Under the pieces are notes generated by a model. It worked only from the letters and a program-made list of their open reading frames with translations. It had not been told where the DNA came from and ran no database searches. From assembly GCA_008632985.1 (NCBI GenBank), contig QPGO01000032.1:307330-371329 (forward strand): a stretch of 64,000 nucleotides of DNA, read 5' to 3'. Position numbers and translations under genes: made by a program. The stretch is from Psammoneis japonica (taxonomy: Eukaryota). Below are positions 16,138 to 64,000 of the stretch, piece after piece (within the stretch, counting starts at the first letter, position 1; the number at the start of each line of letters is the position of its first letter).

Positions 16138-16500
16138 GATCAAAAGTCTTGTCCAGTCCTAGAGACGTGTCTTCTTTACGAAATATAGTATGGTGGCGAC
16201 AGCAACGTTGACTGTTGTCGTCCCGGCTATCGCTGTCATTGCCGGGCATGAGAATGAAGACGAAACATCAAAAATCGCGCGGGCGGCGCGGGAAATTTTG
16301 TGGGTGGAAGCAGGTCCGCCTACCTTTGAAAATTTGCGTTTTTGCCTGTCCTTCGCTCACGGCGACAAAAGGCGAGCTGGCATTTTCTACGTAGATCCTA
16401 CGTAAAGTAATACCACAAATCGGCACGCGAAAATCCATGCAAGCCATTTCGATCGCGGCACTCCGACAAACACGGATATATCCAACAAAGCAGAGAGACC

Positions 16501-36793: not shown

Positions 36794-37093
36794 CGTTGGT
36801 GTTGAACTACAGTATTGGGCTAACCTCATTTTTTTGCTCCTCTCGGGTTCTCGTCCGTCCATCAACCGTTTTCGCGCACTTTTTAGGGCAAGCTGATTGA
36901 TGATTGGTTGGAATACGTCATCATGACGTTGCTCGAAATGCCCGCCAGTTTCGCCAATTTTCGCCAAGAGCCAAGAGTTACGTTGCTCATGGTATTTTGC
37001 TTCCGCAGCCGCCTGTCGTCTTCTCCTCCAGCCCTATTCACAGTTGATTCACGCGTCATTGTCTCCTAACGCCTTGTATTCTATCTTAGAACG

Positions 37094-43000: not shown

Positions 43001-43629
43001 CCAGACGTGAAGTGAAAGGGAGTTGGGGTACAAAAGTTACTCGCCTTGTAAGCGACGTAATGGATGTATCTGACCGGGGCGAGAAAGGCATTGTTTTCTC
43101 TCAGTGGGAGGATATGCTGGAAGTTGTTGAGCAAGCTCTAGCGCAGAATAACGTCCACTACGTTCGAGCGACGAGTCTCGTCCACATTGGCGAAAGTCTC
43201 AAATCCTTTCGTTCGTCGGCGAACTCGGTTCTTCTTCTTAATGTGAAGAATGCAGGTGAAGGATTGACACTTGTTGAAGCGACTCATGTCTTCATGGTGG
43301 AACCCTTGCTGAACTGTGGTCTCGACAGTCAAGGTGAGTGAATGCTCGGAGTTGTGTCTCTTAGTCTCTTGGACGTCGTCTTACTCTCCTGTGTCCTTTT
43401 TACATTAGCTATCAATCGAATTCACCGAATTGGACAGGCGTGCAAAACGTATGTGCATCGCTACGTAATTGAAGATACAGTCGAAGTGAAGATCGACAAA
43501 ATGCGGTCAGAAAAACAAGACGATCAAATTGAAGATTTGATCAACAATTCTAAAGTAAAACAAGGTGTACGTGGCGGCGGCATTGATGGTGGATTGAGTC
43601 AGGCAGAACTGCACCAGCTATTGCATTAA
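37094..43629 (+). CDS. SHPRH: SHPRH-like SNF2 helicase / RING E3 ligase with PHD, bromodomain and PHD insert; introns 38348-38435, 42143-42242, 43334-43408
   Basis: LRPYQEEAVEWM, GGILADSMGLGKTVE, QWEREI, WWRICLDEAQ, RWCVSGTP, LRAACCHPQ, RING CVVC..CGHSF..C, FSQW, GLTLVEATHV, QAINRIHRIGQ. All three introns are GT-AG and in frame. Confidence 0.92.
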
Positions 43630-44191: not shown

Positions 44192-45340
44192 TTAACTTTT
44201 GTTTCGGAATAGCAGTAGCTCCCTGCTAAGATTTCGAGTCCGAGATACATCCCAACCATAGCCATCCTCTCGAGCATTCTTCAACAGCTCAATCTTTGCC
44301 TCTTTTCCACGGCAATAATTAGCGTGGTAAGTGATGGGGTGATCATTTGCGGGACGTCCATTCTTACCAACGGGATAATCGAAGACATCCAAACAACAGA
44401 GACGAGCGGTTGTACTAGTCGATTTGGCTGTCTGCTTTGCGGATTCTCCAGCAACTATTGCATCGACCTCCTTGCCAGTGCAGTGTGTAATGCTTTCACT
44501 TGGCGCATGGTCAGCCTGCTTTGTCAATCCAAATCCCAAGTAGTGAAAAACTCTCCAGAACATGGTTTGGTCGTCCAATCGATTCATTGGGTGACCGCAG
44601 AGCCTGAGTGTTTCTTGAATCACTTGTTGGTAAAAGGCGTTGGAGTGAGACAAATAATAAAAACCGGTATTCCCCTCTCTTGGAATTTCGCCCTGCGTTA
44701 AGCAGGGGTCCGAGCGCGATGTATTGAAACGATGAGCTGGCTGGTAAATGTAATCGTACCGCCGCGATTGGATGAGTTTGCCAAGGTCGTGCGCAAAGGG
44801 ATTCTCGAAAAAGATATTATCGCAATCCGAAAACACAACATCAAATTTGCACCCTTGCAAGATGTGCAAGACCTGTCTCAATTTGTTACAGGAAAGAGTG
44901 TTAAAGCCCCTCTCGCGAAAGAGCATTTCGCCTTGGACCGCGTACTCTGGATTCGTCGGCACGACTCTGGCACCCTGTTTTGTGAGGACTCGGTAAATAT
45001 CCTCGTCCAAGGCTAAAACTGCCCACTGTAGATTTTGTTTCCCAGCCAAGTACTCCCAGTTTTGAAGAATATCGAGGTAGCCATAATTAGCAGCTGTCAA
45101 GATGACAGTCCTTTCCCATCCTCGTCGTTGCTCCTCATGAGACGTATCGTTGCGAAAGACGCCCACGGCCTCGCGCACTGCCAAGGGACAACGATCAGCC
45201 TTACGAAACATTGAACTGCTGGCATCGCTAAAGTAGTCCCCAAGAAAATGCTGGTACGAAGATATCCATGTCATTACAGCCACGCCAACACAGAAAGAAC
45301 AGAGACGGCCTCGGGAAAATAGTCGCGTCTTTCGTCGCAT
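44192..45340 (-). CDS. Nucleotide-diphospho-sugar transferase (GT77-like)
   Basis: Type II anchor; TAANYGYLDILQNW, VVFSDCDNIFFENPF, NTGFYY, DDQTMF, YHANY. Confidence 0.9.
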   Translation of the reverse strand: MRRKTRLFSRGRLCSFCVGVAVMTWISSYQHFLGDYFSDASSSMFRKADRCPLAVREAVGVFRNDTSHEEQRRGWERTVILTAANYGYLDILQNWEYLAGKQNLQWAVLALDEDIYRVLTKQGARVVPTNPEYAVQGEMLFRERGFNTLSCNKLRQVLHILQGCKFDVVFSDCDNIFFENPFAHDLGKLIQSRRYDYIYQPAHRFNTSRSDPCLTQGEIPREGNTGFYYLSHSNAFYQQVIQETLRLCGHPMNRLDDQTMFWRVFHYLGFGLTKQADHAPSESITHCTGKEVDAIVAGESAKQTAKSTSTTARLCCLDVFDYPVGKNGRPANDHPITYHANYCRGKEAKIELLKNAREDGYGWDVSRTRNLSRELLLFRNKS

Positions 45341-46719
45341 TTTTCTCAGAGACTTTTTGTGCCGATCTTAGTCAGTCGCGTCTCTACTGTTGCTTCAAGG
45401 AAGGATCTATCTTTAACAGCGATTGGAGGGTATCTTATCCAACTACTGTCTATACCCTGGATTCAATGCATTGCCTGTGAAAGTTGAAAGTGAAAAGGTA
45501 AGGTGTAAATACCGGTGCCGATACGGTAAGGTTGTTGGTGTTGGCAGTTAGTTGAAGCCGAATGCCGGTCGAACGAGTCGAGAGGTGGCGCGCAGAGTGC
45601 ATGCATTTTGTTGTTTTTTTTGGTTTTTTGTTGCTTTTTGCAGTTTTTCGTTGTTGTGAAAATCGTGTTTGTTCCCCCGTTTGTTTGGCAAGACAAAATG
45701 CAACAGAGCGCCACAGCCGGCCCACCTTGGTTCAGGGGTGGGTGCTGCTGGCTGGTGCCTTGGCAGGTGAGAGATGTTGAGAGGTGCAAGTTGCTGTCAG
45801 AGCAGTGGGAACAGAGCTGCTCTCTCCTCTTTGCCCCCCCCCCCCCCCCCNTGCTCTTTCTTTTTTCATGCTCGCTGCTCTGCTCGGAGAGATCTTCAAC
45901 AGCCAACCCTCTGCTGGTGCAAGTGAAGTGGCAAAAACAAAGGGGAAAAGCTGTCTGGCTGCACTGTGTGAGCCCAGGGGCAAGGCAGCAGCACCCTGGA
46001 TTGCCGGCATTGTGAAGTCACAGCAGCAAGAGATGAGAACCCGCTCACAGCGTGCCACACATGAGAAAACAACAATCCCATGGCAAGTGTGCATGGCACA
46101 ACAAAAAAGGGGGCAGCCAGTTTTAACTTGGCCCTTAAATTTATTTTTCAATGCTGTGCCACCTCCCTGGGCAGCACTTTTTGGCTTTGCCTTCTTGTGG
46201 CACACTGTTTGAAAGCTGCCTGGTGTGATTTTTTGTGTCATGAGGAAGAAGCAGCAGTCTCCACCACTGAGCACAAAAAAAACAGCCTCTGGAAAAGAGC
46301 AGGGTGTGGGTGCAAATGTTCAGCTGTGGTGCCAATTTTGTTTGGAGGGCAGGATTGGAGCTGTGTGAGTGCAGCAGCAGGGTGAGAAAGTTGAGAAACT
46401 TCAGGGCAAGAAATGTGAAGTGAACAAACAGGGGCACCCCCTGTTTCACTTGTTGCACCCACGCTCCAACCAGCACACTGCCTGCCAACCACATCTGGGA
46501 CACCAACAATCTGGGTGTCAAACACCTCCCATCAAGATTTTTTGAAATGAAGCCAGGCAAATTCTTCATTCAATCCAAGACTTTGCCGATTTGTCCAATC
46601 TGCATTCATGAAATGTTCGACAACAAACGTCTGCATTCCTGAAGTTGACATTTTCTCTGCCGCATGCACAAAATAATGACTCTCTGCAAATCATCACTTT
46701 TTTCTTTCTTGCTTTGCAC

Positions 46720-49700
46720 CATGACCACTCCCTCTCCCTCTCCTTCTCCTTTGGTCAATGTCAAGCTCTTGGCTGAAGTTCTCCACCCTGCCGACCTTCC
46801 TGACGTGCCTGCTGTTGCCCTCACAACTGATGCCATTCGTGACATTGTTCTCAAGATGCTCAAGCATCATGATCAGCATGTCTCTCCACTTCTTTTCACC
46901 CTTGGCTCTGTGATGCTTTCTCAAACCAAGAAACGCTCCTGTCCCCATCAGAGCCAGTGGGCTTCCCACTTTCATGTTGCTCTCCATCCCGTGGTTCCGG
47001 AAGGGTCTGCCTTTGACTTCCTCTCCTTCTGCAATCAGGCGCTTTCCTTTCTGCTCCAAAAGTGGCACCTTCATCCCATGTCCCACTTCGCTGTGTTCTG
47101 CTCCATCAGTTCCTTCTCTAACTTCCCACACCCAGACCATTCGCTGGCCCCGTTGTGGACAACCCATGGGTGTGGCATTGCACCTTCATGACACCCACTT
47201 GCAACTTCTTTGATGAGAAGGCCCATGGCATCCTCGCTGGCCCATCCCCTGCCCTCTGTGGTGCCTCTCGGTGCACCTGCAAGTTCCTTTTGTTGCATCT
47301 CCACTCCTTCCTTGTTGGGAAAATTTCCAGTGCTGCTGCCAACCCCATTCTTCAATCCTTTCAAGACTGTCCTGCCTTCCTTGATCTCATTGGCATTGGA
47401 CCTTCCCAGTGTCCCGCCAGCTCTTCTCAGCTCCGTCACTGTTCCCTTTGAGTCTTCTGTGTCTCTGCTGCTTCCAATGCGGTTTGGAACACTCTCCTCA
47501 ATGTCGCCAACCCACCCAACTCTCCGCCTGCTCCATTTTCCATTTTGGGCACTTCTGCTGCCATCACCCCCTTTCCTGATTCCGCCAACTTCTCTGCTGC
47601 TTACAATGGCCTGTCAGAGCTCATCTCCTGCCAAAGCAACATGGTCGTGGTTGTCTCTGATTGGCTCAAGCTTCCTTTGACTCAGCCCAGCATCACCTGT
47701 CTCCTCTCTGCTGCAAACCTTCAGTCTCTCATTCCTGTGTTCTCTGCCCATGATGCCCTTCCAATCAAGTGCAAGCTCCTCCTCTTCCCATCTCCTTGCG
47801 CCATCGCTCTTGCAGATTCCAACCTGCACAACTGTTCCGGCTTCCCCTCCAACCTCCTTGCCTCTGAAATGGACACTTCCCTTGCTGCTGATGCAGCCTC
47901 CCCATCCTGTGCCTCTGCTGCTCATCAGCCACGCCTGCCCCCTCTTGTGACTCTTTTTCCTGTCAGGCTCTTGAGCTGCTTGCTCAAGATTGGCAGATCC
48001 CTGAGCCCCAGGATCTGCCCCCTGCTGAGCCTCTTCCATGCTTCCATCCACAAGCTTGCTCTCCAAATGCTCAGCCTCCTCCCTCCAAACGTCCCCACCC
48101 TTCCTCCGACACTTCTGCACTTCCAACTGATGTTCCTGATGCAATCATGCAGACTGAGGCTGATGACTCTGTCACTCCTCAGCAGCCCCAGTGCGAGATG
48201 GAACTCTTGGACACTCCTCTTTACAAAGCCGCTGCTTGGGCTGCATCCCTGACCTCGCTTCTCTCAGCGACCTCATCGCCTCGCAGAACCCACCAAACCC
48301 CTTTTGTTCCTGGTCTTTTTCATCTGCAGATGCTTCCTCACTGCCTGCTGCTGTGCGTGGCCATCTTCACCAGGAGCATCCTCGCCTGTCTCTTTCCCAA
48401 GTGTCTGCTGCATTCTTTGATGCTGCTGGCTTGCATGTCTGCAGACATTGCAATCACAGCCAATGTGCCTGCTTCTCTTCCATGCACCTCCACAATCACT
48501 TGCAGAATGAGCACTTTGCTCCCTGCTCCACCCTTGATGCCAACATCATCCTTTCATCTCTCCCTGACATTGGTGACTGGCACTCTGCACTCCAATGGCT
48601 TCACTCTTTCACACCTGTGCCTCTGCCTTTCCAAGCTTCCTGCTGCCACAAGCTCTCTCTTTCTGCCAAGAAAGAGCTCTGCTCTGCTCTTCACCATGTG
48701 GTGCGCTGGATCCTTGCTTCCTCCCAACCCCTGTCTGATCCCACTCATCTCATTCCTTTGTGGCAGCGTGACTCTGAGCCTTTTTGGAAGCTGCTGTTGC
48801 TCTTTGAAGCCCTTGTCCTTGCCCCCATCCCTTGGTGCTCTAAATTTGCTCCCACTGTCACCTTGCACCTGGCTCTCTTCCATTGTGGCTCCATTCACCA
48901 GCTCCATCAAGAAGCCTGTTCCCCATGCATCTCGCCTTTCTGTCTCTCCTCCCAACTTCTCCGCCTCCCCCTGCTGTTTTTCCACCCAAGTTTGTGCTGA
49001 TGAAGACAACTTCCACTCCGCCTGCTCCAAGCTCACCTCCGCACTTCCAGCAGCCGCTGTTGCCCCCAAGTGCCTCCTCAACATCCTCAAGCTCTGTCCA
49101 TCCCGCCTGCATCCCTCCAACATTCCCACTGCTCCCTCAACTTGATCTGCTTCCTCCCTTCACAATGAGCCCATTGAGCTCTCCGTCAATGCTCTCCTTT
49201 CTGCTCTTTCCAAGTGCAAACCTGGCACCGCTGCTGGCATCTTTGCAGACTCCACTGATCTCTTCAAATCTTGTGTGCTCCACTCTGCCAGAACCCCACA
49301 GGAGACTCCCAGCATCCTCATTTGCCCTCCTTCCGTGAGCTCATCCTTCTTCTCCTTCATGGCTCCATCCCCTCCTCCATCCATCCCTTGCTTGCCTCGA
49401 ATTACTTTGTCGCCCTCCACAAGGATGCCACCGATCTGGAGAAACTCCATCCCATCGGTGTTGGAACTGCCCTCCGACATGTCACCGGCTTGGTCATCAT
49501 GACCCTGTTTGGCTCTGCTTTCACAGAATGCCCCCTTCCTGATGGTCAATTTGGCACTGGTGTTAAAGGCGGCCTTGACTGTCTCATCCATTCTGCCCAT
49601 GCCAACATTGGGCTCCATCTTTCTGTGGCAGATCCAGCCAAAGTCCTCCTTCTTTTGGATTTGGTCAACATGTTCAACGAAGCTTCCTGTGATGCCTGTC

Positions 49701-49993
49701 ACCACCCACTTTCCTCCATTGATGCCTTCCACCCACTTCTTCCCTTCTTTGATCTTGTGTGCCAAAACTCCAATGCCTGCTGGTGTTGTCGGCCAGACTC
49801 CACCTGGGATTCCTTTGTTCAAGAAGAAGGCTTTGCCCAAGGCTGCCCCCTTGGTCCTGTCTTTGTGAGCCTTGTCCTCTCTCTTGTCCTTTGCCTGATT
49901 AACCAAGAACTTGGTGAGTGCATTCCAGGCTGCTCTCCCACCTCTGTGGGCTCCTTCATCAATGACGCCCATGCTTTTCTTCCCCATCCATGA
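46720..49993 (+). mobile_element. Decayed non-LTR retrotransposon (CRE/RLE-like), truncated just after the RT catalytic motif; 5' end approximate
   Basis: C2H2-like CRHC...HLHNHLQNEH; RT motifs FVALHKD, LHPIGVGTALRH, QFGTGVKGG, LDLVNMFN, EEGFAQGCPLGP, FIND (degenerate [YF]xDD). Confidence 0.85.
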
Positions 49994-50054
49994 CTTGTGA
50001 GAAGCATGAGATGCGCTTCACTTTTGTAGACTGTCTTGTTTCTTCAGGCATTGA

Positions 50055-50600
50055 GAAGGAAAAGTGGGTGTCATGTGCAGTCAATGTGCAGTCAATGTGC
50101 AGTCATGCAAGTGAGGGGTGATTTTTGTGAGCATGTGTGCAGTCTGTGCATGCAAAATTCAAGTGGATTCTGGTGCCACAGTTGGTGTGTTGGGACGCTG
50201 TTGTTGTCTTGTCAGCAGCACATTGGTGGTCTCTGCAGACAGCAGGTCAGTGTTCCACAGTTTGGGCATCCTGCCATTGTCTCAGGGGATTGTGCATGGC
50301 ATTCCCACATCTCAGATCAGCTCCAGACATCCCAATGGGAGGATGGTGCAGGTTTGTCCCTTTACAAACATTGAAGGGCCCTGCTCTGGATGGGCTGGCA
50401 CTCGTTCAGACAGAATGCCAACCTGCCATCTACAGAGACTGCCATGGTGCTGCTGACAAGAAAACAACAGCATCCCAACACACCAGCTGTGGCACCAGAA
50501 TTCACTTGAGCTTTGAGAGCACAGACGGCAAAACTTGCACATCAAAACCACCCCTTGCTTGCATGACTGCATCAACTGCATGATGCCCACTTTTCCTTTT
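50055..50600. repeat. Long imperfect inverted repeat (foldback / MITE-like), arms ~250 bp
   Basis: ttctggtgccacagttggtgtgttgggacgctgttgttgtcttgtcagcagcac on the left matches the reverse complement of ~50447-50500. The + and - ORFs 50036 and 50312 both read FWCHSWCVG.LL.SCQQH. Confidence 0.9.
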
Positions 50601-50829
50601 TGGAAACAGGGTCTGTGTTGTGCAAAATGAGACAAAAAACATGCAGAGTGACATTGTCATGACAATGTTTGCTTGGGGCAATGTTGCCGGCCGGCAACTG
50701 CCACTGCACCACCACCATGCAACTGCAGTGTTTAAAAAATGGGGGACAGCACGCACGTGCAGAAAAAAACTGAAAAACAATTCTCAGAAAAAATTGCTTC
50801 ACCTCAATGACCTGTCAGCTTTGTTGCAT

Positions 50830-50985
50830 GTGATTGTGCCATCTCCTCTTGTCACTGTGCAGCATGCCAGAGCACCGCTTCATCTGCTGTGGGCACAAAA
50901 GGCTGCCGTGATTGTGCCATCTCCTCTTGTCACTGTGCAGCATGCCAGAGCACCACTTCATCCACTGTGGGCACAAAAGGCTGCC
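50830..50985 (+). repeat. 78-bp tandem duplication
   Basis: tgattgtgccatctcctcttgtcactgtgcagcatgccagagcacc...gggcacaaaaggctgcc twice. Confidence 0.95.
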
Positions 50986-51049
50986 AATCACTGTTGCACT
51001 TCCTTCTTGAAAAAGATGGGATGTCCTTTGATGACTTGTGCACCATTCT

Positions 51050-54000
51050 GAGGCACTGAGCAATGCTGCAAAGCAGAGCAATGCTGCATTTTCACATCAA
51101 CGCCAACTGGCTTTGTTGGAAATTCATCCATTGCACAAGTGGCCCTGCACACTCCATGGTTGGTTTTGCTGTGCTGTTTGCAGCCACCAGCATGGATGTC
51201 ATTGTCGTGATTGACAACTTGACATCATGACACCACATTGAAGAAGGCTGCTGTTGTGCATGATGCAGTGGCAGAGCAAGCCAGAGTTGATGCCATGCAG
51301 TTGCAAAAACATTTGTTGGCTCTGACAGACAAGTCCAGAGATCCAGAGCTCCTGCAAGGTCAGGTGGCTGAGTTGAAGGAGATGATCAGCCGGCTTGAGT
51401 CCATCATCAACACCAAGGTGAGCACTGTGCAGAAACAATCTAGTTTTTTTTGCATTTGTGCCAGATTTCTGCCATGCTGTTGCCAGTTTGCTGCTGGACA
51501 TTGCTTCAAATGTTGCTGTCATGGAGGCCAAGTTTCAAGCTGATGCAGTCATTTGCCCTGCTGCAGTGCATGGCAAATGTGAAGTGGCCACAGCCAATGA
51601 CAATGACTTCCCCATGTTGGTGGGAGATCCCATGCTGCCAGTTCATGATTTCAAACCTGAAAGAAACAAGCAATGGCATGGATCTTTCCAGCTGGCATGA
51701 TCTCATCTGTCTGTTGTGGAGGAAGCTGTGTGTGATGTTCTTAAACAGAAAGGGGAGAAAACAACTTGCCAAGGAAATGAGTCCATTTGGGACAGACAAT
51801 TTCATGTTGCACATGGCTGTTGTGGTTGGAATGGACTGTGATGATGATCCAGGCAGAGCATCCAATGTTGGCTCAGCTAAAATTTGAGATCTTGTTGGAG
51901 AAAAAGGATTCAGTGCTGAACAATTGTTTCAGCACTGTTCCAAGGAGCAGAGACGGGTTTGCCAACGGCAGTCTTCAGGACATTTGCGCTGGCAATTTTG
52001 TGCAAGCTGGGAGACACTGTTGATGATGACACCAGCACAGCAAACAACAAATGCACCCATCACAATCCTCCTCCAACAACCTTTCCAGTGTTCCTTAAAG
52101 AATTTGGCAGTGGCGGCTCTGTGGAGACAGACAAAAGCCTGGGACTGGCTCAACGCTGCAGCTCCAAAGCAAGTGTGCACTCTTTCATGGAGGACAAGGG
52201 CTTGCATGGATTTTCTTTGATCAGATGAAATGAACAAGATGGAGGTGGCTGCTGTTGTTGGTTGCCTGCAGTGCCACAGAGGAAGCAAGCATCCCAGCAT
52301 TCCAACGTGCACTTCCAGACACCCTTGTTGAAACCTGTGAGGGTTCTGGAGTCAACAACAATGGCAAATGACTGATGCAATGGGTGTGTCATCATTCAGA
52401 AGATGCCCAGTTGCCACCCATCAGCAAAGCTGATGAAGCCATTGAGCTCATTGATGGCAAGGCTTGCCTTTGTGTTAAAACCAAAATCCATGCATCAATG
52501 AAAGGGATGCATTGCCAAACCGTGCTTGCCTTTCAGAAGAAGGCCTGGCTTGTTGCAGCTATAATTGCAAGTCAGGAAGTCACTGTGCCAAGCATGTGGT
52601 TGATGTTCATGTTCTGGAAGCCATGCAAAAACTGCCCCACTTGTTGTTGAACAGTCTTGCAGCACATGCTCACCATGAGCTTGCTGTGCAATGGGGCAAT
52701 GCAGAGCCTGCTCTTGAAAGCATGATGAAGAAAGTCTTGTTGATGACTTGCAATGGCTGGGGTCAGTTATGAATCCAGCCAAGCACTGTGCCACCATCGA
52801 TGAGTCAAAAACAATGTGAGAGCTGCTCAATGACCATGCTGTTGGAACAGAGAAATCCAAACTGATGCCAGAACCACCACCGGCATGGCATCTGTGCAAA
52901 CCGCTGAGAGACTGTCAGCGCATTGATCCATTGCAGAAATTGATCAAGCATGTGCAGAAAGCAACAAAAACAATGAACAGCGATGCAACTCTGAGTGCAA
53001 CTCCCATTGGGATGCCCAACTGGGCTTTGATGGCAGCTGCCATGGATTGCTTGACAGACCTCCAAAAGGATGAAACTGGTCTCACACAAACAAATCACAA
53101 GAGGAAGCATCCGGCTTTTGACTGCTGTGGGAGCAATCCAAGGTGAGTGCTGTCTGCTCGCATTTGATGATTCATCAGTGCAAAGCAATGCCATTGCTGC
53201 TGTTGCAGAGGTGTTGGGGAGTTGCAGCAGGCCCACAAAGCAAAAAGCTGCTGCTGAGTTGGTGCAAAGGGCCAGGGGTGGAGTGATGACAAGGAGCAAA
53301 ATGGAGAAGCAAAAGAAGAAGCAACAAAAGCATCACACAGGGCACAAGAGTTGCTGCTTCAGAAATGAGCATTGCAAGAATGGTGAGCTTGCTCATCAAA
53401 TGCATTGAGTCACCACCATGCCAACACGTCCTGCTGTGTTGGCCCCAATGGACAAAAGGGACAGGAGCTGGAAGTCACACCATGAGAAACCAGCTCTGCA
53501 TTGAGAGTTGTTGGACAGTCTTGGTTTGTCAAGAGATGACAAATGTGAGGATCTGAGATGCTGTGATGACCATGGGATTCAAGAGGAAAAAAAAACATTG
53601 TGCATCAGTTTCATGATCCCAAAGACTTGTGAATCGAGTGCAGGAATTGACCAGCACCCAGTCACTCTGTAAATTGCTTGCACTGCAAGTGCAAAATCAT
53701 CCTTGGCAGATTCATCAAGCAGCAGCAGGGGTGAGCTGTTGAGAGAAGGAAACTTGCAGAAATCAAGTGGCTGCAGCACAACATCATGGCAAAGGGGTGA
53801 ATGGAGAATTGGCAGCATTGCAGCCAGGTGGGATTCAAAGCTTGGAAGCTGATGGAAGAGAGGGATTGACAGGTTTGCCCACAATGCAAAAAAATTTTGA
53901 AGGCAATTTTGCAACCAATTCTCCAAGCTGCTCAACTCGATGTGCGCCTGAAGGACTTGCCTGGAAAGAAGAAAGCAAGAATTGCACAAAACAATCCAAC

Positions 54001-55260
54001 TCTCTCAAGACTTGCCAAGAGAGACAGAATTGTCCCATCGTCACACCAAAAGGCCTCCACCCAGAACAGGTTGATGAGAAAACTGGATTCTTGGATTTGC
54101 TCTGTTTGCATTGCCACGTTGTGATTGTTTGCGGTGGAGACATGGAAGTTGCAAAGAGCTGTGTTAGCTCACTCACTTGGCATGAAGAATGGTGCGCATG
54201 CTTTGAGTTTGCATGGAACAGAACAGTTGCTTCAATCAGCAGCCTTGCCAGCAAGTGCAACGCAATGCCAAAGGTTGTGAAAAAGGTGCTGACATCAAAA
54301 ATGGCAGCAGTCAAGGTGGTGCGCAACAACTGGCTGAGGCATGCAACTGTTGCTCAAGATGAAAAATTGCTGAGTGAGAAATGGGTTGGGCAAAGTGAAG
54401 CAAAGCACCCTGTGTTCCACAGCAACACTGGAGCACCTCATGAAAACAATGGCAAGCCATCAGATGCTGAGTTGCAGTGCCTGACTTGCTCCAGCTGCTG
54501 TGATGTGTGTGGGGGCAAGGGAGGCACATGCACCCAACCCTGCGGCTGAATGGGGGCACACTTGAAATTCACCCAGGAGCAATGTCAGACTCAGATCATT
54601 TCAACAAAAGTGGGCTGCTTGAGGTGCAGCAGAAATTCCAAGAGGAAGATGGTGGAACATCTTTCCTCAACATCCCAGATCAAGGTCACCAATCCACGCA
54701 GGTGGCTTGGCAGAGTGAATGCCAGTTTGTGCTTTGGCTGACATTTTCTCAGAATGATCACAAATTCAACACATGTGAAGTGCTTCAGTTGTCGTCAGTG
54801 GCAGCAGATGGGTTGGGCAATGCACAGGCTGTCCATGTCTCAAAGTCATTGGGGTGTGTCAAAGTCGGCATCAAGGTCAACTCAAGTGCCAAAGTGCAAT
54901 GAGCTTGTGACATCTGGCTCACCCTTGGATTTCAGGCCAACTTTGTGTGCACAAGCCTGCAACGTAAACAGCAGCTGCTTTGCAGTGATTTTAATTGCAG
55001 ACTCTTTTTGGTCATTTGGAACTCTCAGTTTGGTTTTACCGTGTAATTTCTCAAAATTCACTGCACGCGAGAAATCCAGTAATCCGTTTATTTTTCCCAG
55101 CAATTTGCGTTTTTTCTGGAACAATATACTGGATTGGAATTTTTTAACGGATTAATTACTGGATGAGGCATTTTGGGTAAAATAATGACCTAATTACTGG
55201 GACATTCCAGAAAACGACCTTTTTTTACCGGAATTATTTCTGGATGCCTTGCATCGTCCG
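51050..55260 (+). mobile_element. Decayed PIF/Harbinger-ISL2EU-like DNA transposon: XPG/FEN1-like nuclease, SWIM-like finger, THAP-like segment and DDE_Tnp_4-type transposase; ends approximate
   Basis: EAKFQADAVI...ANDNDF and DCDDDPG..NVG..KI (XPG-I/H3TH); IHASMK...CSYNCKSG...VHV; LRCCDDH; KPSDAELQCLTCSSCC..GKGG..QPCG, GAMSDSDHF, DQGH, GNAQAV. Confidence 0.75.
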
Positions 55261-55698
55261 TTTTTCCGTTAGATGACGCGACAATACAGTGTGTCAACGA
55301 TCATCAACGTTCATTATTGCGCACCTGTGCTTGCACCATGATGATAAAAGCCGCAACCTCATTCTTCATCTCTTTCGTTGCTGTGTTCCGTTTGATGCAA
55401 ACAATGACAGAATGACAAAGCGTTGGCTCTGCAAGTGTTTTTCATTTCTTTGGCCGTCAATTTCCGCAGCGAGGCAAGCATTGTGGTGTTTGTTGGCCCC
55501 ACTCCACCCAAGTTCCCAAGAAAGCCATCTCCTGAGCTTTTGTTTTTCGCGCATTGTGGTGGTCCCCTTCTCTTGTGGCAAGGATCCACGACGGTGCACA
55601 CATCCGCGGGGCTCCGTGCTTCTGCATTCCGTCACACACACGGCGGACGTGTGGCGACTGGCATCTCCCCACCACCAATGCATCCAAGAAAGACCGTG

Positions 55699-55833
55699 GT
55701 CATGCCATGCTTTTTTCATCAGTGGGAGCCACATCGGTCCATCGGTCCAATGATTTGCGTCAGCCAGTCATGCCATGCTTTTTTCATCAGTGGGAGCTGC
55801 ATCGGTCCATCGGTCCAATGATTTGCGTCAGCC
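55699..55833 (+). repeat. 68-bp tandem duplication
   Basis: gtcatgccatgcttttttcatcagtgggagc(ca/tg)catcggtccatcggtccaatgatttgcgtcagcc twice. Confidence 0.95.
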
Positions 55834-56249
55834 GATGCGAGCGCAGTGTCGCTCCGTCCTTGTCCCCATCCGCGGCAGCGGTGTCGCGCAACGTGACGAT
55901 TGATGCCATGTGTCTGCCTCACCTTCTGGCTCTCCCGACTTTTGGTCTGTCGCCTGGAGGACTGCTGTGCCTTCGTCAGCTTGTCCCACAGCATTTGTCT
56001 GTCGTCTGATTTGGGCGGTGCACCGAGTGAAGCTCTGCACGGAGGCCCCACTGATGAACCTTCTAGTGCCATCCCTCTGATGCGTGTCAAGCCAACATCC
56101 AACCGGCGAATCTAGTGTGTCACCGTCTTTTTCCTCATCAACAGCACACCCAGTGACGTGCCTGCACTGTTGCCCTTTGCTCGTTGGATCCCTTTCAGTT
56201 GTCGATGATGAACTCGGTTCCTCTGGGACGCAAAATGTGCACGGTGTGC

Positions 56250-56847
56250 ACCAAACTGTCACATGTTGTTTGTTTTGCCAGTTCTCACATGTTTTCTGAC
56301 ACGCGTGGCATGCTTTTGGCTTTGCAATTTCCCCTGCACAGTCCATCTCCCTCCACTCCGAGGTTGCAACATAGCGATCTCTTGGTGATTCATTGTCTGG
56401 ACTTGTGATGTGCTTTTTTAGCCACGGCAAGAAGAGGCACTCGTGGAGAATGTCTTCTGCCACGAAGTTGCTGCATGCATTGTCACAGACCGCCGCCGCA
56501 GTGCACTCCGTCCACCCAAAGTGCGTTGCCCCGAAAATTTCCTCTCCCTCATCTTGCACACGTTCAATCTCAATGCACCTTTCTCCTTTTACAGGAATCC
56601 CATGCTTGCCGTTGCCAAGACACAAAACAGACAGCAGCTTGTGTTTCCGAAGAGAAGCTTGAGCTTCCTCCTCATCCTTGCACAGGGGATGGGGCTTGTA
56701 GCGGATTCTTTCTTTGTAAGTGTCTGAACCATTGTCGTCAGTGCCGTTGTAATCGTCTGCTTCATCTTCATCAAACTCGACCTCAACGTGTTCTGTTTCG
56801 CCTTTGCCCTCGCCTCCCTCTTCCTCCATCTTGGTTGGCTCTGACAC
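56250..56847 (-). pseudogene. Degenerate protein-coding remnant, probably transposon-derived
   Basis: Protein-like reading (acidic stretch, KLLSVLCL, HECLFLPWL, YVATSEWREMD) inside the repeat block; family not identified. Confidence 0.4.
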
Positions 56848-57104
56848 TCTCTTTTTTGCACCCTAGAATGCGAATTTGACAGCGAGTGAAGGAAACATCA
56901 AGGGTGTGTTGTGCTTGAATGACAACACATCACTTGCTGGGAGGGTGTCTCGCGTCATTCCCACTCTGACGCAGGTGAGTGTTCTCGTCTAGATTCAGTT
57001 TTTGTTGTTGAGAGTTGGCCCAGACACTCTCTTCCAGACACCCTAGAATGCAAATTTGACAGAGTGCAGGAAACATCAAGGCTGTGTCATGCTTGAATGA
57101 CAAT
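56834..57104 (+). repeat. Two diverged ~90-bp copies spaced 180 bp apart
   Basis: gacactctctt...accctagaatgc.aatttgacag...ggaaacatcaagg.tgtgt..tgcttgaatgacaa near 56842 and 57023. Confidence 0.85.
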
Positions 57105-57389
57105 GCAGAGGGTCACAGAGAAGGGCGCGGATCGGGATTGTTTTGTTGTGGGGGTCGCGTTGAGTTTTCCAGGAGCGCCAGTGCATCAAATGTGTCAAAA
57201 CATTAAATCTAAATGACTGATGAAGTTCTGTGCATTTGCTCTAGATGACTGCCACAGAATGGTTTCCATTGTTTGCTGCCACAGAGAGGAGCCGCCATTT
57301 GCTGCGGAATTTGCTGTGAAGTGTGTCTGTTGATGAGAGTGGGCGGAGAAAGTCATGGCCACGGCGGCTGTCACTCCACACAGATTGAT

Positions 57390-58120
57390 GGCACCAACCA
57401 ACCCAACAACTGCAGCCAGAGCACATTGGGGGTCTTTGGTGGACCCCAGGCAGGCTTTAAGAACTGTGGTTGATGCTTTCAAGGCCACTCTGGCACAGTT
57501 GTTGCCCCAGTCACTTTACACCACAATGAGGGTGAGACTTGAAACCCCAACTCCACAGTGAAAGAATGCCATGAATGCATCAACCAACCCAACAACTGCA
57601 GCCAGAGGGCACTGGGTGCCTTTGGTGGACCCCAGGCAATGCTTTGGGAACTGTGGTTGAGAGTTGCAAGGCCACCCTGGCTCAGCTGTGGCCCCATGTT
57701 GCTTCAGCCCACACCGCGCCAAGGGCGAGACTTGAAATCCCAAGTCCACAGTGAAAGGACACCATGAGTGCACCAAACAATCCAGCAACTGCAGTCAGAG
57801 GGCATTGAGGGTCTTTGGCGGACCCCAGGGGACACTTTGCGGGGTGTGATTCTGAGAGTTGCAAGGCCAGCACCCTGGCTCAGCTGTGGCCCTGGCCGTG
57901 TCACTTCTCACCATGCCAAGGGTGAGACTTGAAACCCCAACTCTGCAGTGGAAGGATGCCATGAATGCACCAACCAAGAACCCAACAACTGCAGCAAGAG
58001 GGCATGGAGATCTTTGGCAGACCCCAGGCAACACTTTGAGAACTGTGGTTGAGTTTTGCAAGGCTGTTCTGGTGCAGTTGTTGCCCTTGTGTCACTTCAC
58101 ACCACTCCAAGGGTGAGACT
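57390..58120 (+). repeat. Tandem array 1: ~4 diverged units of ~186-197 bp
   Basis: caaccaacccaacaactgcagccagag...gaccccagg...gggtgagacttgaaaccccaa starting near 57391, 57577, 57770, 57967. Confidence 0.9.
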
Positions 58121-58199
58121 GGATGAGCACCCCAATTGTGTCACAAAAAAGTTGTCAGCTGAGAGCTCTGGCCATTTTGCTGTGCTCTTTGGGTGGGTT

Positions 58200-59400
58200 T
58201 TGAGAGCTTTCAATGTGGTTGGCTTGGTTCATCTGGTGTTGTTTTGGCCCAACATTGCCCAAGACCAGCACAAGACAGACTTGATCACCTCATTTGGACA
58301 ATGGATGGACACCTCAATGCAACAAACTGACTGTGCAGTTGTCAACCAAGGATTCTGGCCTGCTCACTGTGTCCCTGAGGTGGTTTTTAAGAGCATTCAT
58401 TGTGGTCAGAAAGGTTCATCTGTCGTTGTTTGGGTCAAAATCTTGCCCAAAGCTGGCAGCAGACAGACTCATTTTTTGTCTGCTGGACAATGGATGGGTG
58501 CCTCAAGCATGGCAAATGAACCAAACAGCAGTTGCTTGCAGAGTGCTGCAGACAACTCAATGTGACCCAGGGGTGGACTTCAAGAGCAGTGGTTGGCTTG
58601 GCTTGTCTTGTGTTGCAGTGTTGGCCCAACATCAGCACCCCAGCAGTCTGCAGACAGACTCATTTTCTGTCTGGACAATGGACAGATGCCCCAAGCATGG
58701 CAAACAAACCAAGCAGCAGTCAGTTGCTTGTGGAGGGCTCCAGACAACTCAATGTGACACAGGGGTGGACTTCAAGAGTGGCAGCTGGCTTGGCTCATCT
58801 TGTGTTGCAGTGTTGGCCCAACGTCGCCCCAGCAGTCTGCAGACAGACTCATTTTCTGATTTTCTGTCTGGACAATGGACAGATGCCTCAAGCATGGCAA
58901 ATGAACCAAACAGCAGTTGCTTGCAGAGGGCTCCAGACAACTCAATGTGACCCAGGGGTGGACTTCAAGAAAGGTGGTTGTTGGCTTGGCTCATCTTGTG
59001 TTGCAGTGTTGGCCCAACATCACCCCAGCAGTCGCTGCAGACAGACTCATTTCCTGTCTGGACAATGGACAGATGCCTTGAGCATGGCAAACAAACCAAA
59101 CAGCAGTCAGTTGCTTGCAGAGGGCTCAGGACAACTCAATGTGACCCAGGGGTGGACTTCAAGAGTGGCAGCTGGCTTGGCTCATCTTGTCTTGTGGTTT
59201 TGGCCCAACATCACCCCCCAGCAGTCTGCAGACAGACTTGTTTTCTGTGTCAAAATGGTCACCTCACGCATGACAAACACACCAAACAGTTGCCAGCAAA
59301 GGGCTCCAGCCAACTCAATGTGACCCAGGAGTTGACTTCAAAAGTGGCACTTGGCTTGGCTCATCTTGTGATGTTGTTTTGGCCAAACATCACCCCAATC
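58200..59400 (+). repeat. Tandem array 2: ~6 units of ~180-194 bp; related degenerate copies at ~61080-61740
   Basis: caactcaatgtgacccaggggtggacttcaag near 58561, 58753, 58946, 59140, 59320; tgtgacccag again near 61247, 61391, 61631. Confidence 0.92.
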
Positions 59401-59479
59401 TGGGATCTGGCGCAGGTGCCTCCTCCTCTTCCTCACTCAAGAACACTGTTTGTGTCCAAAGGACAATCATCTCAAAGGG

Positions 59480-60960
59480 TTGAGCACAGTTTGGGTGGCT
59501 TGCTCAACTGCAGTTGTGGTGGCAAAGCAAGTGTGCAAAGCAATTTGCCTGGTTGTGGTGGCAGAGCAGCCTCTGTGAGTGCAGAGCTGCACATTGGCCA
59601 GGTGTCAGCCAGCAGAAAAGTCACTTGTGACAAAGTGTTTGCAGCTTTTTCTTTTGAGCACACTCTGCATGTCCCAAGACACAACCTCAATGTGTTGAGC
59701 ACAGTTTGGGTGGTTTGCTTGACTCTGCAGTTGTGTTGGCACCAGAGCAAAGTCTCGGAAGCCTGTGGAGAAACCTGGTGGCACCAAGGTTTTGGCCACC
59801 AGAAAAAGTCACTTCTGCCCAACCTTTTGCACTCTCAGCTTCTGAGCACACTCTTCACATCTCAATGCACAAAGTCAAAGGTTTGAGCACAGTTTGGGTG
59901 GGTTTCTTGGTTGTGGTTGTGCTGGCACAGAGCAGCCTCTGGGTGTGCAGAGAACCCTGGTGGTGAGGTGTTAGCCAGCAGAAAAAGTCACTTCTGCCAA
60001 AGTTTTTGCAGTCTTGTCTGCTGAGCTTGCACTCTGTCCATGTCCCAAAGGACAGTTTCAAAGGGCTGAGCACAGTTTGGTTGGTTTGGTGGGGGGGAGT
60101 GTGGCTGTGGAACTGGAGCAAAGTCTGGGGAGCCTGCAGAGAAACCTGGTGGCACCACAAAGTTTTGGCCACCAGAAAAAGTCACTTTTGCCAAACCTTT
60201 TGCACTCTCACCTTCTGAGCACAATCTTCACATCTCAGTGCACAATCTCAAAGGCTTGGGCACAGTTTGGGTTGGTTTCTTGGATGTGGTTGTGCTGGCA
60301 GAGCAGCCTCTGGGTGTGCAGCAGAGCAAACAGAAAAAATCACTTCTGCCAAGAGTTTGCAGTCTTGTCTTCTGAGCTCACTGTCCATGTCCCAAGGAAC
60401 AGTCTCAAAAGGCTGAGCACAGTTTGGGCAATTTGGTGGAGTGTGGCTGTGGAACTGGAGCAAAGACTGGGCAGCCTGCAGAGAAACCGGCAGTGGCACC
60501 AAAGTTTTGGCCACCAGAAAAAGCAACTTCTGCCAATTCTTTTGCACTCTCAGCTTCTGAGCACACTCAACCTCAAAGGCTTGGACACAATTTGGGTGGG
60601 TTTCTTGGCTGTGGTTGTGCTGGCAGAGCAGCCTCTGGGTGTGCAGAGAACCCTGGTGGTGAAGTGGCTCTGTCAGCCAGCAGAAAAAGTCACTTCTGCC
60701 AAAGTTTTTGCAGTCTTGTCTTCTGAGCTCACTGTCCATGTCCCAAGGAATGGTCTCAAAGGGCTGAGCACAGATTGGGCTGGTTCTTTCTTGACTGAGG
60801 TTGTGGTGGCAGGGCAGCCTCTGTGTGTGTGCAGAGTTCTTGTGTGATGGCCAGGTGTCAGCCAGTGGAAAAAGTTGCTTCCAACTGATGCAAAAAATGG
60901 TTTGCACCCCAAGCTTCTGAGCACACTCTTCCTGTCCCCAGACACAATCCCAAAGCATTG
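59480..60960 (+). repeat. Tandem array 3: ~8 units averaging ~180 bp, alternating A/B subtypes (higher-order dimer of ~350-370 bp)
   Basis: gagcacagtttgg-like anchor near 59482, 59697, 59885, 60068, 60258, 60416, 60583, 60766; agaaaaagtcacttctgcc-like motif in most units. Confidence 0.88.
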
Positions 60961-63900
60961 AAGAACAAGTGTTGGCCAGCAACAGAAAAAGCTCCCTCTG
61001 GCAAATTGTCTGCACTCTCAGTTTCCTCCACTGACCCACAGGCACAAACTTCTTGAGCTGCTGATCACAGCTTGGTTGGGTTGGTTTTAGCCACAATTGT
61101 GGAGCGGCAGTCGGCTTGGGTTGTCTTGTGTTGTTTTGGCTCAACATCACCCCAGCCTGACAGCAGAGGCAGACTTGATCTTTCCATCTGGACAATGGCA
61201 GACACCCCAACAAGTCATCAGCTGGGAATTCTGAGGACCAACTCACTGTGACCCAGGGGCAGAATTTAAGAGCATTTGTTGTGGTTGGCTTGGCTCATCC
61301 TCTTGTGTGTTTTTGGCCCAACATTGCCCCAGACCAAGAGCAACAAACAAATCAAACAGTCGTCAGCTGAGAGTTCTGGCTGACTCACTGTGTGACCCAG
61401 AAGCATGCTTTCAAAGTCTGCCCCTTGAGAGAATTCATTGCAGTTGCCTTGGCTCATCTGGAGTTGTTTTTTTTGGCCTGGCATTGCCCCAGGCTGCCAG
61501 CAGATGATTTTCCACCTGGACAACAGATGGGCACCCCAAGTGTGAGGACAAAAAAACCAAACTTTTGTCAGCTGAGGGGTCTGTCCAAATTGCTGCACCC
61601 CTGAGGGTTCCAGCCAATTTGCCAATTTGCTGTGACCCAGGGGTGATGGGCTTTAAGAGCATTCATTGTGACTGCCTTGGTTTGTCCTGTGGTGGTGTTT
61701 TGGCCATGTGATGCCCCAGCCCAGCAGCAGATGCAACAAAACATTCCCCCTTTCAAGTGTTGAACACCTCAAGAAGCAACAAAGTTTGCTGACATGCAGC
61801 AACTGTGTTTGCCTTGTTCTTTCCAACCAAAAAGAACATGCAGTTTTTGGAAAAATGGAGGAATTCAACCACACTTGCAATGTTCTGAAACAATGGCAGA
61901 GATGGGACACCACATTGCATCAACTCAATGCTGAGCTTTGAGACAGACAACCACAGGTTTTGGCCCTCAGAAAGGCTGGGAAGACAGGTGTTGCTTGAGA
62001 GTCATCATCTTTGCACTTGTGCTCTGAGGCACCTTGCTTCAACCTGGATTCTTTCATTCAGTTTGGTCACAAAATGATCCCAAGGTGAGCTTTGCTTGAT
62101 TTTTCTTCTTTCAGGGAATTCCATCAACCACCAACAACTTGCCAATTGGAGCGAGCATGCACCGCGTGATGCCACTCCCCCAAACATCAAGCACACAAAA
62201 AGACAAGTGATCCCATCAACTTCAAATGTTTCAACAGCTTCTTTGTGCAGCTCTTGACCATTTCTTTCTGTGCAAAACACACACAAGCTAACAGCACCTG
62301 TGTCAGCTGGGTTCATTGAGATTGGAGAAGAGGCAAAGTGAGCTCCCCTCCAGAAGTCAGAAAGTCAGCAACAACATCGTCAATTCTGGTGCTCTTTGTG
62401 AACTTTTGGGTGGAGAATGTTCTCCAAGATGAGGCCATTTTAGTTGCCTGTCCTTTGTGATCTGATTTGCCCAAGAGTTGTTGGCACTGCAATTGTGGTG
62501 GTGAAGATGGGGGCAATGTCCCCCCAAAGCCATCGCAGTTCTTGTGCCCATTGGCTGGGAATCATGTGAAGACATGCCAACTTGCTTTTCTGGCTTTTGT
62601 TGTTCCTGCCGGTGATCTGCTCTTGCCTGCTTTCTTTCCAGCCCCTGACTCTTTGATCCTTGCCTTCAACTTCTCAATCTCAGCAAACCTGACTTCTCTG
62701 CCTTTTTGCCAAGCCAGGTGTCTCTTTTGTTCAGCGACCCGTCCAAAGACATTTGCCATCTGGCTCCACTTTTGATCTGGAAGACTTGCATCAAGCTGAG
62801 CCACCTGCTGCAGGTGCAGGTGCAGTTGGGCATCCTTGTCTGAAGCGCCACTCTCCCAGCCTGTGTGCCATCATGAAACACAGTGGCTGATGCCAAGATT
62901 TTGTTTGCCGGTGCTCATTCTCTGGAAAAATGTTCTGCTGGCATCCCTTTCACAGTTTGAGGAGTCTGGTGGGTGAGTCAAGAACCCCCCCCCCCTCTGG
63001 CACTCCAAGGGACAACCAAATGAAGAAAGTTGGCAGCAGTGTGTGCCTCCCGTCTCTCTGGCTCTGACTCTCATCTGGCTGTTGCCCACATGGGGGCAGT
63101 GCTGGCTTGGTGGAGGAGGGTTCCCCCATCTGCAGAGCCTGGGCATGCCCTCTGGTTCTGGTGCCTTTGTCTGTGTCCAGCCGTGTTTGCCTCACACAAA
63201 CAATGCAGGGGTGCCAGGCTGAACTTCGCATTTTTGACAACTCGCCTCCTGTTTGCGCCAGCTGCACATTTTCTGTGGTCACCCACAACATGCACCCTGT
63301 CATCCCTTTGAGCAAACCCACCACAGATCACCTTGTGGCAGCAAGTCAAGAGCTCTGGACAGTGCCAAAATGGGTTGTCATCGCCCTTCACACATGCCAT
63401 GATGCTGAAGATGGGATGTCTTGAGCAGGGAGCACTCTATCTTCCTGCACGTTCCTTGCAACGCATTGAGGGAAGACAAATTAAAATCCTGGTTGGATGC
63501 ACAATTTGTTCAAATGCTCGTCACCCTTGATTTTTGAGAGGTGTCAACACACCCCGCATTGAAAATGTCCATGCAATTGGGCATTCACACATTTGCACAG
63601 ACAAACACAATTTCAAATTGCCAAAATTTTGAACATAAATTTGTGTGTCCTTGAAAACACAATGCTGTGATTTTGACCCAAGAAAAACGAAAAACCATCC
63701 AAAAAGCACAAGACCATCACAATCCAAGAAGCAGCGACACCATGGCCTCAGGATCCGTTGTTTGCCGCAGATCCAGGAAAGCACTGTTTGATTTGCTTCA
63801 GCAAGTTCATTGCATCATTGTCATTGCTGTTGCAGCTGTTGAGTCTAATTCTTTGTGGTGTGCCTTTCATTTGTGCAGAGCAAAGGAGAGAGCACGCGAC

Positions 63901-64000
63901 GGTCAAGAGGCTTCTTTTTCGCGTGGCGTGGCCAACCTCGCTGTCAACAACGTTGCTGCCAACGGGAACACGGGAACCCAAGAAATGGAAGAAGGGGCAA

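Follow-up and report, generated by a model that had tools for sequence, protein, structure and literature searches.

Why would a compact diatom genome carry long blocks of DNA from which the dinucleotide TA has almost vanished? The question is raised by a 64,000-nucleotide stretch of Psammoneis japonica (GenBank assembly GCA_008632985.1, contig QPGO01000032.1, positions 307,330 to 371,329 of the forward strand; hereafter the window, with positions counted from its first letter). An initial annotation, made from the letters alone, had pointed to ∼18 kb at its right end as nearly free of TA and largely free of CG with an excess of TG and CA, and had proposed a repeat-targeted A:T>G:C process acting at TpA. 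Our analysis supports this proposal. A TpA-specific A:T>G:C process has acted on the DNA. It is restricted to sequences that are repeats or foreign, and it is distinct from CpG decay: the affected blocks hold a LINE-type retrotransposon (LINE, long interspersed nuclear element), a DDE transposon, and satellites, and the neighboring genes are spared. The same signature is present in environmental contigs. We consider it likely that the blocks are old diatom transposon and satellite DNA, changed in place at the DNA level by two independent mutational processes, of which TpA>TpG/CpA is the dominant one and CpG decay the second.

The window has a GC content of ∼0.48 and is mostly a compact, gene-dense eukaryotic region. 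Its gene-rich remainder, outside the affected blocks, has an observed/expected ratio (o/e) of 0.56 for TA and 1.00 for CG, and gene-bearing 2-kb intervals range over 0.39–0.67 for TA and 0.72–1.12 for CG. The 2-kb intervals of 46–64 kb range over 0.02–0.17 for TA and 0.03–0.57 for CG, with TG at 1.52–2.06 and CA at 1.45–2.06. The depleted sequence falls into two blocks, A and B, composed as follows; no strand is assigned to these regions, and depths are 31-mer word depths in X1, a public sequencing run kept as de Bruijn contigs.

26250–31650: block A, depleted of TA and CG (TA 22 vs. 361 expected, 0.06; CG 0.12; TG 1.87; CA 1.79).
45551–54960: block B, first part, transposon remains depleted of TA and CG (TA 25 vs. 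577 expected, 0.04; CG 0.20; TG 1.85; CA 1.61).
54961–55345: island of ordinary composition inside block B, 385 bp (TA 20 vs. 35 expected, 0.57; CG 1.18; X1 contig depth ∼94–128).
55346–57390: multi-copy segment of block B with TA lost and CG largely kept (TA 14 vs. 115 expected, 0.12; CG 96 vs. 136, 0.70; X1 summed depth 230–365).
57391–60960: three satellite arrays of block B (57391–58125, period 193; 58150–59397, period 193/387; 59550–60960, period 186/373).
60961–64000: block B, last part, multi-copy repeats depleted of TA and CG, extending past the window end (TA 0.05; CG 0.20; X1 summed depth 165–313).

Across block B (45551–64000, 18.4 kb), the o/e of TA is 0.02–0.12 and that of TG and CA 1.46–1.93 by segment. 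Its 73 TAs compare with 1134 on average, and never fewer than 1064, in 200 mononucleotide shuffles, which bears out the composition first described for these ∼18 kb; block A (∼26.25–31.65 kb, 5.4 kb), the island, and the CG-keeping segment are additions to the initial annotation. Both block borders lie within one 500-bp step and adjoin intact genes. The left border of block B is sharp, with 25 TAs in 45001–45500, five in 45501–46000, and zero to three per 500 bp thereafter, and dense TA returns at 31893 to the right of block A. The most TA-depleted part is that of the satellites (TA four vs. 210 expected, 0.02; CG 0.06). Throughout the blocks, the o/e of AA stays at 1.15–1.56. GpC is raised in block A and in 45.5–55 kb (1.26–1.39 vs. 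1.07 in the background), as expected if TAC became TGC and GTA became GCA. In the satellites, the o/e of ApT is down by half, to 0.47. The island is AT-rich (GC 0.39), holds several short TTACTGGA-like subrepeats, and lies where a multi-copy element begins.

Two elements were recognized in block B, and a putative fragment of the family of one of them lies at the left edge of block A.

48293–49990, + strand: decayed non-LTR (long terminal repeat), LINE-type retrotransposon, N-terminal part plus reverse transcriptase (RT); relatives map to 48293–49987, the element is cut off at ∼49990, and the frame changes near 48940 and 49307.
51434–54963, + strand: decayed large PIF/Harbinger-type element, with a DDE_Tnp_4-family transposase part at 53749–54963 and a frame change near 54540.
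25929–26129, + strand: putative LINE C-terminal fragment of the same family, a weak match (tblastn of relatives, residues ∼900–1035 of ∼1000–1270 amino acids [aa], E 6e-4 to 7e-3).

Sixteen longer proteins match the RT open reading frame (ORF; 49259–49990, +), the best at E 2.4e-55 and 47% identity, and RVT_1 (PF00078) is present in 13 of them. Nine further relatives are of similar length, giving 25 relatives in all with up to 48% identity, and the search for similar-length proteins returned none nearer than this. For the transposase ORF (53743–54546, +), 267 relatives came up at or below E 1e-3, the best of them at 5.9e-23, and eight of the 12 relatives scanned match DDE_Tnp_4 (PF13359), five of them above the Pfam cut-off, directly after the matched stretch; long relatives of the transposase also align to 51434–53074, and the transposase alignment runs on to 54963. 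This homology of both ORFs, which emerged solely when large databases were searched by sequence, shows that the RT and the DDE transposase named at the outset are real elements. Neither the RT ORF nor the transposase ORFs of the window themselves have a Pfam match. A Pfam scan of the blocks found no transposon domain in 61 ORFs of at least 120 aa (E ≤ 0.01) or in 115 ORFs of at least 70 aa (E ≤ 1), and none of the 16 stop-to-stop ORFs of at least 120 aa in block A matched Pfam (E ≤ 0.01). A six-frame protein self-comparison of block A with block B gave satellite-level matches only, and self-BLAST of the window gave no long terminal repeats.

We took the ancestral state of the two elements from columns conserved among relatives (at least 50% agreement, at least six relatives), which provided 19 Tyr columns and 76 A-initial codons (Ile, Met, Thr, Asn, and Lys). 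At the 19 Tyr columns, the elements now have Cys (TGY) in 10, His (CAY) in six, and Tyr, Phe, and Ser in one each (LINE, n = 10: Cys 5, His 3, Tyr 1, Phe 1; transposase, n = 9: Cys 5, His 3, Ser 1, Tyr 0). Six relatives with ordinary TA, used as controls, kept Tyr in 43 of 70 such columns and had Cys or His in four (16/19 vs. 4/70, p = 2e-11). Other residues were retained: Phe in 12 of 13 columns of the LINE and eight of eight of the transposase, and Gly in 11 of 11. The A-initial codons point the same way. Those that follow T are now G-initial in 10 of 16 cases in the LINE and three of four in the transposase, and those that follow other bases in four of 36 and one of 20, respectively (pooled, 13/20 vs. 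5/56, p = 2.5e-6). In the LINE, 74 replacements can be explained by a single base change; TA>TG/CA accounts for 16 of them and CG>TG/CA for 12, and 13 of its 16 inferred A>G replacements follow T. The sense-strand outcomes at conserved Tyr are 10 TG versus six CA (p = 0.45); since both occur on the sense strand, both strands were hit. The direction TA>TG/CA, which had been read from a few motifs, and the involvement of both strands, which had been proposed, are thus borne out over the conserved columns.

Those motifs are themselves present in the transposase. In LTCSSCC, Cys at 54487, 54496, and 54499 stands where 42/68, 60/65, and 59/65 relatives have Tyr; in DQGH, His at 54687 stands where 30/38 relatives have Tyr, within a D-K-G-Y motif; and the His of HPIG stands where relatives carry Arg. 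A further His, at 54597, replaces a Tyr found in 35/41 relatives. The invariant Asp residues are kept at 54588 (41/41 relatives) and 54678 (36/38). The reading of FIND in the RT as a product of CG decay needs an amendment: its Asn is a CpG-type change (C-GAT > C-AAT), as claimed, but the ancestral motif in relatives is Y-H-D-D and not FIDD.

A context-specific substitution spectrum requires alignment at the DNA level. With the nearest RT relative at just 48% identity, the window LINE copy has no DNA-level consensus and no close intact relative, so we made the spectrum on a relative from environmental DNA. Scanning metagenome contigs with the RT alignment yielded 179 relatives, and the analysis went on with the best 80. 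Among these best 80, the o/e of TA was 0.45–0.87 in 78 contigs, and two contigs, from metagenomes of other projects, were depleted: L016 (TA 0.11, CG 1.00) and L018 (TA 0.21, CG 1.02). L016 holds a LINE frame of 1104 codons (260–3574) with a single stop and zero Tyr (Cys 33, His 51), and none of its 13 conserved Tyr columns is kept (Cys 6, His 2). Just past the end of this frame TA climbs again, to 12 in 446 bp.

We aligned L016 to L014, a contig of ordinary composition (74.9% identity over 3575 bp) that is 99.9% identical to a third contig, L013. Of 149 TA sites in L014, L016 has TA at seven, CA at 57, TG at 49, TC at 19, and TT at six; 142 sites were lost, 106 of them to CA or TG, and every other dinucleotide is 40%–77% conserved, with CG at 55%. 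Polarizing the two with a third relative (L007, 65%–67% identity) as outgroup places the change on the L016 lineage. There, A>G occurred at 17/35 positions after T, compared with 7/119 after A, 9/119 after C, and 2/64 after G, and T>C occurred at 9/21 positions before A, compared with 6/77 before C, 2/26 before T, and 5/17 before G. The L014 sister lineage had A>G at 0.02–0.07 and no such excess after T. The strong excess of TA>TG/CA that the initial annotation had set as the mark of its proposed process is therefore seen directly in DNA, on a relative of the window element. The Tyr signature is also present in other public assemblies, where it is annotated as protein: two of 123 database transposase relatives of at least 150 aa have <0.5% Tyr (P0214, 556 aa, zero Tyr; P0272, 201 aa).

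The window also shows ample CpG decay. Arg is kept in only one of 11 and two of 10 conserved columns of the two elements, with His, Cys, and Gln as replacements, Ser TCG>TTG is seen three times, and the o/e of CG is 0.06–0.20 in the CpG-decayed parts. This loss is probably the familiar decay of methylated repeats. The loss of TpA is independent of it, because TA has been lost with CG kept in 55346–57390 (CG 0.70), in L016, and in L018, in agreement with the earlier view that the two are separate. Within the segment, 55501–56000 has zero TA and 34 CG; in L016, Arg is kept in 19 of 27 conserved columns. We found no 500-bp step, among those examined, in which CG was lost and TA kept. The segment also includes a 68-bp duplication in two copies (55699–55833; Tandem Repeats Finder).

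Sequencing reads agree with the assembled sequence. X1 contains 81% of the words sampled from 50–58 kb, and two further runs, X2 and X3, contain next to none of the stretch. Contigs of X1 match the window with zero to one differing letters per contig (e.g., 45834–48460 and 51269–54234), which excludes an assembly slip. Word depth is 59–70 in the matched block contigs, the same as in the unique flank 44500–45790, and ∼60–115 across 45551–54960; from ∼55 kb onward the summed depth rises to 165–708, so that part is multi-copy. By 31-mer depth, then, 45.8–54.9 kb is now single-copy and 55–64 kb multi-copy, figures that describe present-day copy number and not that when the mutations arose. X1 and the window have just two single-copy differences, neither at TA. 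Most of what sets other copies in X1 apart from the window is transitions (154 of the 204 kinds of change listed), and adjacent TG<>CA pairs are frequent among them (55292/3, 56096/7, 56168/9, 56576/7, and 56690/1), including between copies of 55346–57390. Among the 835 adjacent double differences counted between satellite monomers, CA<>TG is likewise the leading class with 206, and the next class has 37. The sole N of the window is at 45851, a short way into block B from its left edge, and contigs of X1 stop at 45790 and restart at 45834.

The level and INDEPENDENCE of the process were judged from the DNA transposon, the satellites, and the sense-strand TG versus CA outcomes. That satellites and a DNA transposon were hit, with both outcomes on the sense strand, argues that the process acts on DNA and not on RNA intermediates. 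An in-frame stop never arises from TA>TG/CA (TAA>TGA remains a stop), so the frames of decayed copies stay long and Tyr-free.

The few TAs that remain are far from a random sample. Of 74 left in the blocks, 46 are Y-TA-R, 15 Y-TA-Y, 13 R-TA-R, and none R-TA-Y, compared with 257, 398, 392, and 452, respectively, of 1499 background TAs (chi-square p = 2e-21). The 23 surviving TAs of L016 and L018 agree, as 16 are Y-TA-R and R-TA-Y is absent. Uniform re-creation of the leftover TAs from CA or TG predicts 21.6% R-TA-Y, against zero of 74 seen (p = 3e-8), and at least two survivors are ancestral (the Tyr at 49403 and the Ile-Asn junction at 49900). With re-creation failing and ancestral survivors present, the tetranucleotide pattern probably reflects target preference. 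A one-strand neighbor rule, with T-A-Y preferred, was also rejected: it predicts Cys alone at Tyr codons preceded by a pyrimidine (Y-TA-Y), and six such codons went to TG (Cys) and five to CA (His).

What could produce such a footprint? The dominant process would be an A:T>G:C transition that falls on the adenine of TpA in one strand or the other, removing ∼90%–98% of TpA sites, and the second would be CpG>TpG/CpA decay by deamination of 5-methylcytosine in methylated transposons. For the first, a TadA/ADAT-like deaminase targeted to silenced chromatin may turn adenine into inosine, which is read as G. In tRNA, the natural target of TadA/ADAT enzymes is A34, which comes after the invariant U33, and this would make TpA a natural context for them. 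By analogy, then, the chemistry may be enzymatic adenine deamination by an enzyme of this kind, and the process in the window may be the one that arises de novo in cultures of Bigelowiella natans (Mettrop et al., bioRxiv 10.64898/2026.01.13.699255, version of 2026-04-14). The caution in the initial annotation that such a process might have been reported before was apt, as this 2026 preprint shows it in another organism.

Sequence does not tell the damaged base (A or T) apart when A:T>G:C changes fall at a palindromic site, and the same targeted TpA process might run on another chemistry, either thymine oxidation at TpA or error-prone patch repair. TET/JBP-type dioxygenases turn thymine into 5-hydroxymethyl- or 5-formyluracil, which mispairs with G, and polymerase eta has a WA-motif bias in error-prone patch repair. 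The survivor pattern (R-TA-Y 0/74, Y-TA-R 46/74) and the six-versus-five outcome at Y-TA-Y fit double-stranded recognition at least as well as a single-strand deaminase. A polymerase-eta-like bias should also have hit ApA, and is itself unlikely because ApA is spared, with AA undiminished in the blocks (o/e 1.15–1.56) and A>G after A at only 7/119 in L016; nothing in these data points to thymine oxidation. The authors of the preprint favor an ADAT2-like adenine deaminase, which they propose without an assay (10.64898/2026.01.13.699255). On balance we regard a different chemistry as unlikely, with a small but real chance of being right. Far less plausible is ADAR-like A>I editing of retrotransposon transcripts at UA, fixed by reverse transcription. 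A LINE is among the affected elements and ADARs prefer U before the edited A (10.64898/2026.01.13.699255), but the DNA transposon and satellites are equally affected, both outcomes appear on the sense strand (TG 10 vs. CA 6 in the window, TG 49 vs. CA 57 in L016), and the depletion fills contiguous blocks regardless of element borders. Moreover, the B. natans mutations arise in single-copy integrated DNA (10.64898/2026.01.13.699255).

An artefact, in the form of a modified base at heterochromatic TpA read as G or C, or of wrong assembly or polishing, was raised as a possibility by the initial annotation, and X1 may be the sample of origin, with a platform that is not recorded. We find this explanation very improbable, given contigs built independently from reads at ∼60–70× word depth with zero to one differences per contig, the same signature in two metagenome contigs of other projects and in Tyr-free database proteins, and X1 copies in which TG stands for a CA of the window, or CA for a TG, as for fixed between-copy mutations; the line-specific new mutations of the preprint were detected with Illumina reads (10.64898/2026.01.13.699255). 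Least likely of all is selection against TA (through UA-cleaving RNases or TA-targeting insertions) or a TA-free donor genome, which the data contradict. Mild avoidance of TA is general (0.56 in the background, 0.45–0.87 in intact relatives), but the non-coding satellites are the most depleted (0.02), a 75%-identical sister copy has ordinary TA, and the changes destroy conserved transposase residues (the Y-Y and D-K-G-Y motifs) and so are not adaptive for the element.

We therefore favor in-place mutation of transposon and satellite DNA by two processes, and the following points weigh against it. The direct DNA spectrum was taken from an environmental contig rather than from the window. The window elements are 40%–48% identical to their nearest relatives, and their ancestral states derive from protein columns instead of a DNA consensus. 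The spared island at 54961–55345 sits inside block B without explanation. The near-equal split at Y-TA-Y (six vs. five) means that the survivor bias is not reducible to a one-strand rule such as a single-strand deaminase might give. With X1 possibly the source sample and its platform and library type not on record, systematic misreading of a modified base remains a formal concern. Finally, no de novo mutation, modified base, or enzyme has been observed for this diatom, and the tie to B. natans is one of likeness of signature only.

Several further features of the window lie beside these subjects. Between 46001 and 50000, GC skew is −0.25 to −0.35 and AT skew −0.19 to −0.28, making the + strand (the LINE sense strand) C/T-rich; the sense strand of L016, unlike that of the window LINE, is A/C-rich, and neither skew is explained by the TpA process. 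Block B also contains a 150-bp inverted repeat with 83% identity (50098–50247 and 50421–50571), possibly the ends of a small DNA element, beside a 78-bp tandem duplication in two copies (50830–50985). The exons of the window genes are long and open, and the products include Vps52, a GDP-dissociation inhibitor, a 1246-aa SNF2/bromodomain/PHD/RING protein, and sulfotransferase- and glycosyltransferase-type proteins, and all named best matches of the GDP-dissociation inhibitor are diatoms (74%–86% identity). The SNF2-family gene (37070–43338, +), 2 kb from block B, is spread over three long ORFs and includes PHD, bromodomain, SHPRH-type helical, RING, and helicase C domains; no link to the blocks is implied. 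A tandem repeat of ∼72 bp with 86%–87% identity (14811–15027) lies inside an F-box-like gene (14722–16158, −).

The kind of process seen here has already been described, very recently, in one organism, and the window widens its range to diatoms. A mutational genome defense that removes TpA was not known before the 2026 preprint, and a saturated footprint in a diatom, far from a chlorarachniophyte, argues that the process is widespread. In a joint reading, diatoms, a dominant group of phytoplankton that is amenable to genetics, would share the TpA-directed DNA mutator of the rhizarian alga, which would silence viral insertions, transposons, and satellites almost to completion, prefer R-TA-Y and spare Y-TA-R, and operate independently of cytosine methylation; the arguments for and against this broader claim seem to us evenly balanced. 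If true, it would describe an old genome defense, wide in the SAR group (stramenopiles, alveolates, and Rhizaria) or wider, and a mirror image of fungal repeat-induced point mutation (RIP), and Tyr-free ghost ORFs, in which no stops are created, would lie unrecognized in protein databases. The LINE frame of L016 is a clean example of such a ghost ORF from TpA erosion. For annotation, domain models miss the decayed copies (zero Pfam hits in the blocks) and gene callers may still predict proteins from them. Diatoms also offer transformable model species for knockout tests of candidate deaminases and of the link to silent chromatin. Relative to the main text of the preprint, the window adds that satellites and classical transposons are hit as strongly as viral DNA, that TpA loss is separable from CpG decay and more complete where the two are comparable, that survivors follow a strict tetranucleotide pattern, and that decayed copies keep long Tyr-free open frames.

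The closest known system is that of B. natans, which was the one directly relevant paper in a full-text literature search that found no diatom report. According to the main text of the preprint, 231 of 302 new single-nucleotide mutations in mutation-accumulation lines lay in two regions of integrated viral DNA; those in the viral regions were, with one exception, A>G or T>C, and every one of these was on TpA, at a rate of ∼6e-7, locally raised ∼1000-fold, with the effect in some lines only (10.64898/2026.01.13.699255). The same source reports 324 low-TpA coding sequences enriched for DDE endonuclease, endonuclease-RT, and RT domains and 124 clusters of windows where TpA was low and CpA+TpG high, and its main text makes no mention of CpG, satellites, diatoms, other species, or context beyond TpA (10.64898/2026.01.13.699255). 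Both systems, so far as the preprint describes its own, have TpA alone hit and turned into TpG or CpA by strand, in foreign or selfish DNA localized within a normal genome, with a long-term footprint in which TpA is low and CpA+TpG high and with DDE and RT domains among the low-TpA sequences. They differ in that de novo mutations were seen in B. natans and the footprint is read from sequence in the window, and in that the preprint describes insertions of nucleocytoplasmic large DNA viruses (NCLDV) and virophages with modest depletion (Rho TpA 0.45 in the NCLDV region), compared with a LINE, a Harbinger-type element, and satellites at 0.02–0.12. B. natans is a chlorarachniophyte (Rhizaria), whereas the flank genes of the window are diatom-like.

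RIP in ascomycete fungi, a mutational genome defense, resembles the window in its transitions at one dinucleotide in repeat or foreign DNA and its sharp compositional blocks. It changes C:G to T:A mostly at CpA, raises TpA, and creates stop codons; in the window, by contrast, TpA is depleted at least 10-fold, GC content goes up, and stop codons cannot arise. RIP was rejected as the process on the grounds of this depletion and of the direction TA>TG/CA. Deamination of 5-methylcytosine explains CG>TG/CA and cannot remove TpA, and the CpG decay of methylated transposons accounts for the second signal of the window (CG 0.06–0.20; Arg CGN > CAY/TGY/CAA; Ser TCG > TTG).

In animals, APOBEC3/AID on DNA and ADAR on double-stranded RNA provide defense against selfish elements by base deamination, as we propose for the window. 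They differ from it in that APOBEC/AID give C>T, and ADAR acts on RNA and would mark retroelements only, on one strand. To our knowledge, no APOBEC/AID, ADAR, or ADAT enzyme has been tied to the present signature. Like that signature, ADAR and TadA/ADAT act on A following U, and DNA editing has been reported for an ADAT2 of amphioxus (PMC10354150).

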